The position numbers and the translations under genes were made by a program. This document shows, piece after piece, positions 37,188-40,559 of a DNA stretch of 64,000 nucleotides (position 1 is its first letter; each line of letters opens with the position of its first letter). Below the pieces are notes generated by a model. That model saw only the letters and a program-made list of their open reading frames with translations, did not search any database and had not been told where the DNA came from. The DNA is from Escherichia coli 042 (GTDB lineage Bacteria; Pseudomonadota; Gammaproteobacteria; Enterobacterales; Enterobacteriaceae), in NCBI RefSeq assembly GCF_000027125.1, contig NC_017626.1. One strand, written 5' to 3'.

Positions 37188-38501
37188 ATGAGAATATCAA
37201 AAACATTAGAATCATTATTTACATTTCTAAAGGAAAAAGAGCAGAAAGGTCAACTATTCAATAAAGAGGCTATACTCACAGCCACCGGTTGGAAAGCGGC
37301 TACATTTAGAACTTATTGGGTTAAAGGGCAGTTATCTGACTTTATTAGCGCAATTGATGAAGATACATTTGAGGCATCAAACTGTCAAAACATCTCAGTT
37401 ATAGAGTTTTCGAAACTATTATCTCAAAGTAAGCATAGAAGAGGGTTAGGTCATAATTGCCAGTCGAAACTAGCAAAAGCATTATTAACAAAATCTAGAG
37501 ATAATATGATGCTTGCTCTTGAATTATATAATAGACCTTCAATTGAGAATAGAATGGATGCATTTGTAATGTGTTTTTGCACTTCATGGGAACAATTATT
37601 AAAAGCTATTTTGATTGAAAAAAATGGTGAAGAGTCAATTTTCAAAAAAGAAAACAAGCGAGGATTCAGAGAAACTATTTCACTAAGAGACTGCTTAGAA
37701 AAAACATTCCCATCGAATTCAAAGGTAAGAAATAATATAGAACAAATAACAGTTTTCAGAGATCAGGCTGTACACCTTTTAATGCCAGAAATACAAGGGA
37801 TAGCCTCAAGGATATTTCAGTCTGGCGTTCTTAATTATTCATCATATTTTGAAAAATTCACAGAGGTTTCTTTTCTCAATAACAATAGCACAGGAATGAT
37901 ATCCTTGGTAGGTGAGTTTAGAACACCGCCAATATCCGTACTGAAATCCATTTATGGAGAAGTAGCGACTGATATATTAGACTTAGCAACAACTCTTCAG
38001 CAAGAAGTTGATGATAAAAATGACATAGAGTATGCAATTCCCTTAAATGTAAAACTTGTTTTTGCGACATCAGATGATGATGGGAATACCATAACCTTAG
38101 CTAAAGCTGATGAGGGAATCGAGGGGCTTAAGAAGGCTCTAATTATAGAAAAACCAGTAGATAGATCAAGAACACATCCGTATTTGCAGAAGGATGCCAT
38201 TGAGCATATAAATGAAAAAATCTACGAACTTTATAGTATAGAAAAGATAGAAAAGCATTTAGTATTCAAAGATAACAAAACAGGAAAGAAAGCGATAAAT
38301 AAAAATTGCTTTGATGCTGTTATTTGTAAGAACGGATGGAAAAAATCAAATAATAAATATCATCACAAAAACAATAATCCAGAATACCACTATTATTCAC
38401 CAGCATTAGTAGATGAATTTGTCAAGAAAGCTATGACAAACGAAGATTATCTAATGAATACAAAAAAATGGTATAATGCCAGAAGAAGTAAGAAAAAGTG
38501 A
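37188..38501 (+). CDS. Hypothetical protein (about 437 aa), AT-rich, no family recognised; possible defence-associated protein
   Basis: Long uninterrupted ORF immediately after int; SD aaggtga before the ATG at 37188 (track start 37164); Lys/Asn-rich, low GC. Confidence 0.6.
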   Translation: MRISKTLESLFTFLKEKEQKGQLFNKEAILTATGWKAATFRTYWVKGQLSDFISAIDEDTFEASNCQNISVIEFSKLLSQSKHRRGLGHNCQSKLAKALLTKSRDNMMLALELYNRPSIENRMDAFVMCFCTSWEQLLKAILIEKNGEESIFKKENKRGFRETISLRDCLEKTFPSNSKVRNNIEQITVFRDQAVHLLMPEIQGIASRIFQSGVLNYSSYFEKFTEVSFLNNNSTGMISLVGEFRTPPISVLKSIYGEVATDILDLATTLQQEVDDKNDIEYAIPLNVKLVFATSDDDGNTITLAKADEGIEGLKKALIIEKPVDRSRTHPYLQKDAIEHINEKIYELYSIEKIEKHLVFKDNKTGKKAINKNCFDAVICKNGWKKSNNKYHHKNNNPEYHYYSPALVDEFVKKAMTNEDYLMNTKKWYNARRSKKK

Positions 38502-38835
38502 TGAATAGTGAAACTATGAACAGTACATATCATTTATAAGTGTGCTGTTCATAGTAATTCACAGAACATACTGATTAATTTTATTTTTTCCTAAAACCGG
38601 AAGAAAATAAACCAGTGAAATATTCTTTACATTTAAAATTCGGAGGCCACGGAAATATAAAATCTAATATTAATTACTAATTATATTTATAAAAGGTCTG
38701 CCTCTGACCATTTGAAATGAAAAACAAATCCCAATAATATAGAAAAAAATATCTGATATAATAATTTTGTAGATAAAATAGGCCTATATAAAAACATATC
38801 TTTAATTCCCCCCTTAAAAAGAGGGGCAAATACTG

Positions 38836-39882
38836 TCATTCCTCAAATCTATATAACGCGCCATCAAGATATTCTTCAACAGTATCTATACCGATCCATC
38901 TTCGGTTCAAACTCTCAGCTACAGCACCGGCAGTCATCGACCCACCAAATGGATCAAGAACTAAATCCCCTTCATCTGTAAGCATTTTAATGAAGAATTC
39001 AGGAAGCTGCATAGGGAAACGCGCAGGATGAATTTTGATACCATTAGCTTTACATTTTTTTGTATAAACGTCATTAGCTGCATTATTACCCATTTTCAAT
39101 ACATCAGACGGTGTTTCATCATCAATAAAATTAGGTGGGATAGACCCTCCATTATGGGTTTTATCAAAAGATTCATTAATATTATGTCCTGATGGTCGAA
39201 CAGTAGTTTTAACACCTTTTGCTGCAAGCCGAAGCATGTCCTTGCTATAAGGACGAAGCACTTTTTTATTACTTGCTTTTGGGTGTGGCCCTTTACTAAA
39301 CCAGAAAACATACTCTACAGAATCCTTCACTCGGACTCGTTTGACTGTAACCCATTGAGCAGGTACAGGCATCTTTGCAGGGTTGTACCAGAAAGTCTCT
39401 TGCGCTAGTCTGAATCCTACTTCCTCAACTAAAGCAATAACTAACTTAAAATGATAGATAGATCTAGTTGGCTCACCGGGATTCCAAGAGCCCCCGATGT
39501 TCAAAACGAAACTGCCATCTTCTGTCAGTATCCTTTTGATTTCTTTCGCAAAATCAACAAACCACTCAACGTAGTCCTTCTGACAGACATTACCATATTC
39601 TTTCTTAAAATGAAGTGCATATGGTGGAGATGTGAAGACTAAGTTAACCGAGTTATCAGGTATTGACTTCATCACGTCTAACGAATCGGCGTGGAAGATC
39701 GAACCCAAGTTAGATTCGTAAAACGGTTCAAACCCGTTGACTAACTTTGTAGTTGAATTTTTCTCTTTTGATGAAAAGTCAAGCGTTTTTTGAATAGTCA
39801 CAACAATAAATCTCGAAATGGGCAATCGGATTGCATTGTTGCGTACATAACACAAGGGATCAAGTACAGATGAACCAACCAC
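38836..39882 (-). CDS. DNA methyltransferase, beta-class amino-MTase (N4-cytosine or N6-adenine)
   Basis: Catalytic motif IV FTSPPY followed by C-terminal AdoMet motif [11 protein letters not shown]; this motif order is characteristic of beta-class MTases; true start codon uncertain. Confidence 0.8.
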
Positions 39883-40559
39883 AGGACTTTACAGCTCTTC
39901 TTAACAGCTTAACTCCTCAAGAGCAGCAAATGCTTTTCACGCAACTTCGCGGAAGAATTCCCATCCATCCTCTTGAACAGCAATGGAATATTACAGCAGA
40001 ATTCATTTTAGAAGCCATTGCGCGAAGCCAAGATATCACGAAACGAGGCGTAAGAGGAATCATTGCAGAGCTATGTTTCGATACATATATCATAGGTGCA
40101 ATGAAACATAAGGGCTGGATACAACATCAACTTTTTGGAGATTTACCCTATGATGCACTGATTTCTCATCCTCATGTCGGGGAAATAAAAATACAAACTA
40201 AAAACCAACGACTTGAACGTGGAGTCCCAAAATACGCAAATGGACCAATGATAAAATTCAATCCATATGTCGAAGGTTGGTATGTTTGCGAAACACAGAA
40301 AACGAGGACAGGAAAAAATGCGGAAGGGTTAGATACGAGGCCATATAGATTTGGTGAGTTTGATATACTATCAGTTTGCCTCCATCCGTCATCGGGTGAT
40401 TGGACACGATTCATGTTTTGCCCTGCATATACACTAATGCCAAGAGCGACAAATCCTGAACTAATTGCTGTTTTACAACCAGTACCACCTACACGACAAG
40501 GAAATTGGACTGATAATCTTGAGGAAGCGATTGAATGGCATTTGAACCGTAATCGTTAA
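39870..40559 (+). CDS. Hypothetical protein, candidate restriction endonuclease partner of the MTase
   Basis: ORF divergent from and slightly overlapping the MTase start; contains a possible PD-(D/E)xK-like element ([14 protein letters not shown]); assignment is inference. Confidence 0.45.

Follow-up and report, generated by a model that had tools for sequence, protein, structure and literature searches.

This study concerns three neighbouring genes at positions 37188-40559 of a 64,000-nucleotide stretch of Escherichia coli 042 DNA (contig NC_017626.1), which we call the window. The original prediction, made from the sequence alone, had grouped them as one integrase-proximal defence cluster consisting of an orphan 437-amino-acid (aa) protein with no recognised motif, a beta-class DNA methyltransferase (MTase), and a divergent 242-aa putative endonuclease. 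The list of open reading frames (ORFs) confirms all three genes at 37188-40559, with the MTase gene convergent with the 437-aa ORF and the third ORF divergent. They are real and intact, and they form two independent modules, not one cluster. The features that matter for this conclusion are given below.

37188-38501, plus strand: 437-aa protein of the DUF3644/EC042_2821 family, a stand-alone candidate defence gene (PADLOC PDC-S19)
37188-37427, plus strand: its N-terminal winged helix-turn-helix (wHTH), aa 1-80 (AlphaFold, AF2, predicted local distance difference test [pLDDT] 86-95; Foldseek match to 2pg4, probability 0.94, E 0.49)
37758-37775, plus strand: its HEPN catalytic motif R191-D-Q-A-V-H196 (R-x4-H), from the homologue alignment
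38160-38447, plus strand: its C-terminal region, a weak match to the EC042_2821 restriction endonuclease (REase)-like domain (Pfam PF18740, E 0.0034)
38636-40766, no strand: 2131-bp restriction-modification (R-M) cassette, a single presence/absence unit made up of exactly the MTase and nuclease genes plus flanking sequence
38836-39801, minus strand: 321-aa beta-class DNA MTase of the M.PvuII family, predicted to modify N4 of cytosine (Pfam, PDB, and PADLOC matches)
39802-39869, no strand: divergent intergenic region of 68 bp (read from the sequence; no ORF)
39870-40559, plus strand: predicted cognate type II restriction endonuclease, a 229-aa PD-(D/E)XK protein (fold, conserved residues, and linkage)
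40152-40154, 40194-40202, and 40290-40292, plus strand: its conserved residues D95, Q109-x-K111, and E141, respectively, to which E67 is added

The minus-strand gene encodes a full-length homologue of the N4-cytosine MTase M.PvuII, from which N4-cytosine activity is predicted. Its SPPY motif (aa 58-61; 39619-39630) precedes the S-adenosylmethionine-binding motif I (aa 283-292; 38926-38955), and since motif IV thus comes before motif I, the order is that of the beta class, as had been proposed. The protein matches Pfam PF01555 (N6_N4_Mtase, E 7e-43) and PADLOC MTase_II (E 2e-102). Comparison with the M.PvuII structure 1boo (E 9.8e-91, ~55% identity over aa 23-319) strengthens the earlier leaning toward N4-cytosine methylation; the similarity takes in a 25-residue stretch between motifs VIII and X, and a 9-aa insertion is found in the variable region.

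For the divergent gene, the length had to be corrected. The TTG start of the 242-aa ORF, at 39831, overlaps the MTase start, and both the RefSeq annotation and the N-termini of homologues favour the ATG at 39870, giving 229 aa. The protein found no sequence match among PDB sequences, and only a structure model and a family profile were informative. The AlphaFold model, built with 46 homologues (pLDDT 92.4), suggests a PD-(D/E)XK fold with an alpha-beta-beta-beta-alpha-beta core, and structure comparison places this model closest to the homing endonuclease I-Ssp6803I, followed by Holliday-junction resolvases. The family profile aligns weakly with I-Ssp6803I through the motifs D..Q-V-K, (E/D)..RTR, and PYR..FD. 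Pfam PDDEXK_5 (PF11645) is matched by 4 of the 46 family members at E<=1e-3 and by 11 at E<=0.1, the window protein not being among them. With at least 1361 homologues at 90% clustering, the family is widespread, is named by none of the searched libraries, and is structurally closest to a homing endonuclease.

The family alignment also locates a putative active site. D95, Q109, K111, and E141 are invariant and E67 is at least 90% conserved, and in the model they lie on the helix at 58-81 and on the strands at 96-100, 104-113, and 138-141, which is where catalytic residues are expected in this superfamily. A PD-(D/E)xK nuclease, originally suggested as a possibility, is therefore supported by both the modelled fold and the conserved set of E67, D95, Q109-x-K111, and E141. 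The D...EIK element named at the time survives in part: D95 is invariant, whereas E105 and K107 of E105-I106-K107 vary and the conserved element is Q109-x-K111. Judging from the alignment, the D...(D/E)-x-K motif is present as a variant, D95...Q109-x-K111, with the invariant E141.

The role of the 229-aa protein is best read from its genomic company. We examined 77 loci encoding homologues at 35-76% identity, drawn from Acidobacteria, Planctomycetes, Proteobacteria, Bacteroidetes, Verrucomicrobia, other phyla, and a metagenome-assembled genome (MAG) of Thaumarchaeota. An MTase 53-86% identical to that of the window lies immediately upstream, in the same divergent orientation, in 70 of them, and in five of the other seven the contig extends <500 bp upstream. 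The same pairing is found on an archaeal plasmid (Methanothrix). What makes the 229-aa ORF the candidate for the cognate endonuclease is this association with a single MTase clade, seen across phyla in 70 of the 77 loci. In E. coli E500002, moreover, 9 bp take the place of positions 38636-40766, whereas the sequence on either side aligns (86-88% identity). M and R are co-inherited across genomes and constitute one two-gene type II R-M cassette, the activity of which is predicted.

In the mechanism that we propose, the MTase would methylate N4 of cytosine in a short palindrome on the host DNA, most likely CAGCTG or a related site, and the nuclease would cut the same site when it is unmethylated on incoming phage or plasmid DNA. 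The nuclease would resemble other type IIP enzymes in its action, probably forming a homodimer, and cutting would use a metal-dependent PD-(D/E)XK site formed by E67, D95, Q109-x-K111, and probably E141. As with type II R-M pairs in general, loss of the island would also be penalised, via post-segregational killing.

Many relatives of the cassette carry an additional gene. In 52 loci, a gene of ~68 aa lies between M and R on the R strand, i.e., in the controller position (e.g., at ~4700-4950 of locus L007). Its product is an excisionase-type HTH_17 protein (PF12728, E 7.7e-10) with the motif WISQAEAARLRGVSRQAI, which would be an unusual type of regulator for an R-M system. The gene is missing from the window and from ~15 other loci, including those of Limnohabitans (L004) and Zoogloea (L074); the 68-bp gap between M and R in the window holds no controller gene, and tblastn of the HTH_17 protein of other loci against the window gave no match. 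The Limnohabitans and Zoogloea loci also differ in how far each gene resembles its counterpart in the window (85% identity for the MTase and 50% for the nuclease in the former, 86% and 76% in the latter), a contrast suggestive of recombination between the two genes or of greatly differing rates of change.

As for the recognition sequence, CAGCTG is in our judgement a reasonably probable target, an assignment that draws on MTase homology and a weak site-avoidance signal and is suggestive. Avoidance was tested against a Markov-model expectation in 629 kb of pooled carrier loci, with 4060 testable hexamers. CAGCTG is the most under-represented of them all (75 observed vs 200.7 expected, ratio 0.37, bootstrap 95% 0.29-0.46). 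Among palindromes it ranks lowest in 778 of 1000 bootstraps, and 39 of the 77 loci are free of it where 14.7 were expected. Speaking against the assignment, two small controls run with the same model have observed/expected ratios of 0.58 (the window's E. coli core) and 0.50 (four non-carrier loci), and other GC-rich palindromes in the carriers lie at 0.48-0.56. Because the non-carrier controls give 0.5-0.6, we downgraded the avoidance from strong to suggestive. M.PvuII-like MTases, furthermore, pair with several unrelated nuclease families, and MTase homology alone therefore does not fix the target.

These same points give substance to the alternative that the cassette is a functional type II system with a target other than CAGCTG. 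The identity to M.PvuII is only ~55%, with the insertion noted above in the variable region, relatives of M.PvuII have several different nuclease partners, and the avoidance signal is near control level. On the other hand, CAGCTG ranks first among the hexamers in carriers and leads the palindromes in most bootstraps, and the putative target-recognition stretch is well conserved with M.PvuII, so we consider another target a serious but lesser possibility. A different doubt concerns the pairing itself: the MTase could effectively be an orphan, and the 229-aa protein a selfish or repair nuclease resembling homing endonucleases that does not restrict foreign DNA. The nearest structure being a homing endonuclease, with Holliday-junction resolvases next, would fit this view, as would the failure of any restriction-enzyme model in Pfam, NCBIfam, or PADLOC to recognise the protein. 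Yet a strict divergent linkage to a single clade of MTases holds for the nuclease gene in many bacterial phyla as well as in the archaeal MAG and plasmid; the gene is gained and lost jointly with that of the MTase and has no intron or intein context; a small regulator-like helix-turn-helix gene occupies the R-M controller position in 52 loci, and the carrier loci are depleted of the predicted site. An orphan MTase beside an unrelated nuclease is thus improbable.

Comparison with known systems places the predicted R-M pair between two precedents. The PvuII system (M.PvuII, C.PvuII, and R.PvuII; CAGCTG, N4-methylcytosine) shares a full-length homologous MTase at ~55% identity, the divergent arrangement of M and R, and probably the target. 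R.PvuII, however, has no detectable sequence similarity to the 229-aa nuclease and is shorter (157 aa), the window nuclease having an extra helical N-terminus of ~55 aa. PvuII also has an Xre-type C protein, whereas the window has no controller and the regulator of its relatives is of the HTH_17 type. I-Ssp6803I (PDB 2ost; PDDEXK_5), on the other hand, has in common with the nuclease family the three motifs seen in the weak profile alignment. It is encoded in an intron and lacks an MTase partner, and its 23-bp recognition site is read by a tetramer (PMC3384342); the window nuclease, by contrast, is linked to an MTase and has N- and C-terminal extensions. We put forward, tentatively and as rather less than an even bet, that the 229-aa protein represents a large restriction-endonuclease family, the closest cellular relative of I-Ssp6803I, that would have been recruited independently of R.PvuII for M.PvuII-type MTases at CAGCTG. 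Elsewhere this family would normally be governed by HTH_17 proteins, with the E. coli cassette as a regulator-less variant.

We now turn to the 437-aa protein, the ORF of which has 32% GC against 51% in the core. Far from being an orphan, it matches Pfam DUF3644 (PF12358, E 1.6e-46, model positions 2-182 of 183) and has 383 homologues, among which an architecture of 430-445 aa is kept. The motif that had been missed is the HEPN R-x4-H: R191, D192, A194, V195, and H196 do not vary among 45 homologues (52-83% identity), and the structure model suggests the HEPN helical fold. PADLOC assigns the protein to PDC-S19 (PDLC04952, E 2.6e-68 over aa 102-435 of a 445-aa ORF, plus eight further PDC-S19 models), and it also matches phrog_9605 (E 2e-89). 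The C-terminal region is less clear. Residues 278-323, just before it, have pLDDT <50 in the AlphaFold model, Foldseek of the whole model against the PDB did not resolve this domain, and precomputed PF18740 matches occur in about one-quarter of the homologues, among the matches listed.

DUF3644 corresponds to the EC042_2821 HEPN family, described as fused to a wHTH and a novel REase domain and as occurring in R-M neighbourhoods (Anantharaman et al. 2013, PMC3710099). With strong matches to profile models of both this family and PDC-S19, the same wHTH-HEPN-REase-like architecture, the invariant R-x4-H, and the modelled HEPN fold, the 437-aa protein looks like a plain member of EC042_2821/DUF3644 without structural difference. 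We propose that it is a single-protein system in which a HEPN RNase domain (R191-x4-H196) is framed by the N-terminal wHTH and a REase-like domain at the C-terminus. The protein would most likely cleave RNA when triggered by an invading element, leading to growth arrest or abortive infection.

That this gene stands apart from the R-M pair follows from where each of them is found. The HEPN gene is absent from all 77 R-M loci, and in E. coli E500002 it is present without the R-M cassette. In Vibrio parahaemolyticus (L086-L087), a DUF3644 homologue lies in same-strand cassette arrays or beside an integrase, and in the cyanobacterium Picosynechococcus it lies among housekeeping genes, in both cases without an MTase. 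The Vibrio array of small same-strand ORFs, which resembles the cassette array of a superintegron, also includes putAbiC, PIN, and Thg1-like genes. Since the 437-aa protein is found elsewhere without any MTase, it is not the cognate nuclease. The original prediction had allowed either neighbour to be the cognate nuclease or an independent defence gene; each role can now be given to one of them, the 229-aa protein being the nuclease candidate and the 437-aa protein the independent HEPN candidate.

Two other arrangements were weighed against this separation. The 437-aa protein could itself be the nuclease of the MTase through its C-terminal REase-like domain, the 229-aa ORF then being unrelated. 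The weak EC042_2821 REase-like match, the reported occurrence of the family in R-M operons (PMC3710099), and its position next to an R-M system in Yersinia as well would favour this. The gene is nevertheless absent from every locus with the MTase and 229-aa pair, has no MTase alongside in E500002, Vibrio, and Picosynechococcus, and is convergent with the MTase gene and outside the 2131-bp indel; the R-M neighbour in Yersinia, a type III Mod/Res pair (Mod 628-658 aa, Res 988 aa), is complete and brings its own nuclease. This assignment is very improbable indeed. Alternatively, by analogy with PrrC/EcoprrI, all three genes could form one system in which the HEPN RNase acts as a second line when the R-M is inhibited. 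The DUF3644 gene does adjoin R-M genes in both the E. coli and Yersinia islands, and the published neighbourhood analysis ties HEPN genes of the EC042_2821 family to R-M operons (PMC3710099). However, partner type and side differ (type II downstream here, type III upstream in Yersinia), no R-M partner is seen in E500002, Vibrio, or the cyanobacterium, the gene occurs in none of the 77 R-M loci, and a shared cargo hotspot accounts for the adjacency. A single three-gene system is therefore unlikely, and we retain two independent modules.

Experimental precedents for the 437-aa protein are limited to relatives with other architectures. In HEC-08, a DUF3644 HEPN protein, the motif histidine is needed for phage defence (Payne et al. 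2024, bioRxiv 10.1101/2024.01.29.577857). HEC-08 shares a DUF3644-type HEPN domain with an R-x4-6H motif, but there the HEPN domain is N-terminal and followed by zinc-finger-like domains, whereas in the 437-aa protein a wHTH precedes the HEPN domain and the C-terminal domain is of a non-zinc type. We rejected HEC-08 as its identity because the protein has no CxxC or zinc-ribbon pattern and its C-terminus matches EC042_2821 instead. Ishtar was considered as well. This single-gene anti-plasmid HEPN system (DUF4145 or DUF3644, with a C-terminal mixed alpha/beta domain) comprises small proteins that clear plasmid RP4 and often occur in integrons and defence neighbourhoods (2026 preprint). Neither the window protein nor its E. 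coli alleles, searched by accessions and motifs, are in the Ishtar homologue Table S3; BLASTP to a listed 212-aa E. coli homologue gave E 3.1, i.e., no similarity, and the window protein is twice the size. A literature search found no paper on PDC-S19, nor on the three RefSeq accessions.

Taken together, we hold with good confidence that the locus consists of a type II R-M cassette and an independent, stand-alone HEPN candidate defence gene in the cargo slot of an ssrA island, in kind an ordinary combination for island cargo. The analysis itself shows which domains and folds the proteins have been assigned, which residues are conserved, how the genes are linked, and that they are present or absent as modules. 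Next to the control ratios and the varied nuclease partners already mentioned for the recognition site, several points weigh against this reading. The 229-aa protein matches no model in Pfam, NCBIfam, PADLOC, or PHROGs, and the second motif position is Q instead of D/E. The HTH_17 gene of the 52 related loci being missing from the window leaves the delay of nuclease expression in a new host unaccounted for. For the 437-aa protein, the C-terminal domain is a weak assignment (E 0.0034) in a model that is partly of low confidence, PDC-S19 is a candidate defence system only, and the C-terminus of HEC-08 differs from its own. Finally, we infer, and do so from the features above, the enzymatic activities, the recognition sequence, the oligomeric state, the HEPN trigger, and the defence phenotype.

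The island in which both modules reside adds the remaining features.

35384-35746, plus strand: ssrA transfer-messenger RNA (tmRNA) gene, the integration site of the island (ARAGORN; RefSeq annotation of a ~100% identical record)
35913-37142, plus strand: tyrosine integrase of the ssrA-integrated mobilisable island (RefSeq 'integrase domain-containing protein'; ORF list)
40596-40615, plus strand: terminator-like GC hairpin and T-run, 37 bp after the nuclease stop codon (consensus scan, a pattern match only)

The window, a piece of E. coli chromosome, shares 99.9-100% identity with the isolates AHB1, MS 21-1, and S1-KEN-05-A, and the gene order before the island is recN, bamE, ratA, smpB, and ssrA. 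From the tmRNA gene to ~62 kb, the GC content is low (~30-40%, against 51% in the core). This island encodes the integrase, the three genes studied here, TraD, a MobQ relaxase, two H-NS-family proteins, and DotA/TraY- and TraW-family proteins; it is mobilisable because of TraD, the MobQ relaxase, and other genes that it encodes. With ssrA and the integrase directly upstream of the 437-aa ORF, the studied genes fill the integrase-proximal cargo slot, just as had been proposed. A direct repeat of at least 16 nt matching the 3' end of ssrA, as expected for an att site, was not found at the far end of the island.

Within the cassette, at its right end and just past the nuclease gene, four short GC-rich hairpins are clustered at 40596-40720; they may serve as terminators or be the scar of a recombination event. 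A promoter scan of the region was uninformative, with 11 found vs 14.7 expected from shuffled sequence. Further downstream, an 83-nt element occurs in two copies (41622-41704, between the TraD and mobQ genes, and 56950-57032) that are 81% identical and contain a hairpin (GATTGTTCAAAACAATC); they could represent an oriT-like site of the mobilisable island that has been duplicated. The two H-NS-family proteins (49098-49505 and 58423-58662, by RefSeq annotation) may be modulators of xenogeneic silencing. The region 50325-54609 holds the DotA/TraY-family (51949-54609, minus strand) and TraW-family genes. The island has no complete set of type IV secretion genes, and these two look like a remnant or like a helper for mobilisation.

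Related islands carry other cargo. E. coli KC-Dl-1 (locus L003, 8762-12072) has ParB/RepB-family partition genes and a serine recombinase downstream of the R-M cassette; these are not in the window and represent another cargo variant of the island. In Yersinia enterocolitica (L083-L085, 2987-9314), a related integrase/TraD/MobA island carries the complete type III R-M between the integrase and the DUF3644 gene. The slot beside the integrase of the ssrA island thus swaps cargo, with the HEPN gene as the constant element; it was seen to hold a type II R-M, a type III R-M, partition and recombinase genes, or no further cargo. In E. coli the two modules are rare, the DUF3644 gene being present in 10 and the R-M pair in 4 of 5426 complete genomes, and all three genes are annotated as intact coding sequences in every complete E. 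coli genome carrying them. Disruption of the 437-aa ORF in related islands, which the original prediction had considered, was thus not observed.

For annotation, the MTase (WP_000155179.1) is to be treated as a member of an R-M pair, not as an orphan, and the 'hypothetical protein' WP_001075573.1 together with >1300 relatives could be relabelled as probable type II restriction endonucleases. If its activity is confirmed, this family would be a second, sequence-unrelated nuclease family paired with PvuII-type MTases, and it would form an evolutionary bridge between the homing endonuclease I-Ssp6803I and restriction enzymes. For E. coli itself, the cassette constitutes a rare barrier that could affect transformability and the uptake of phages and plasmids in the few strains that carry it.

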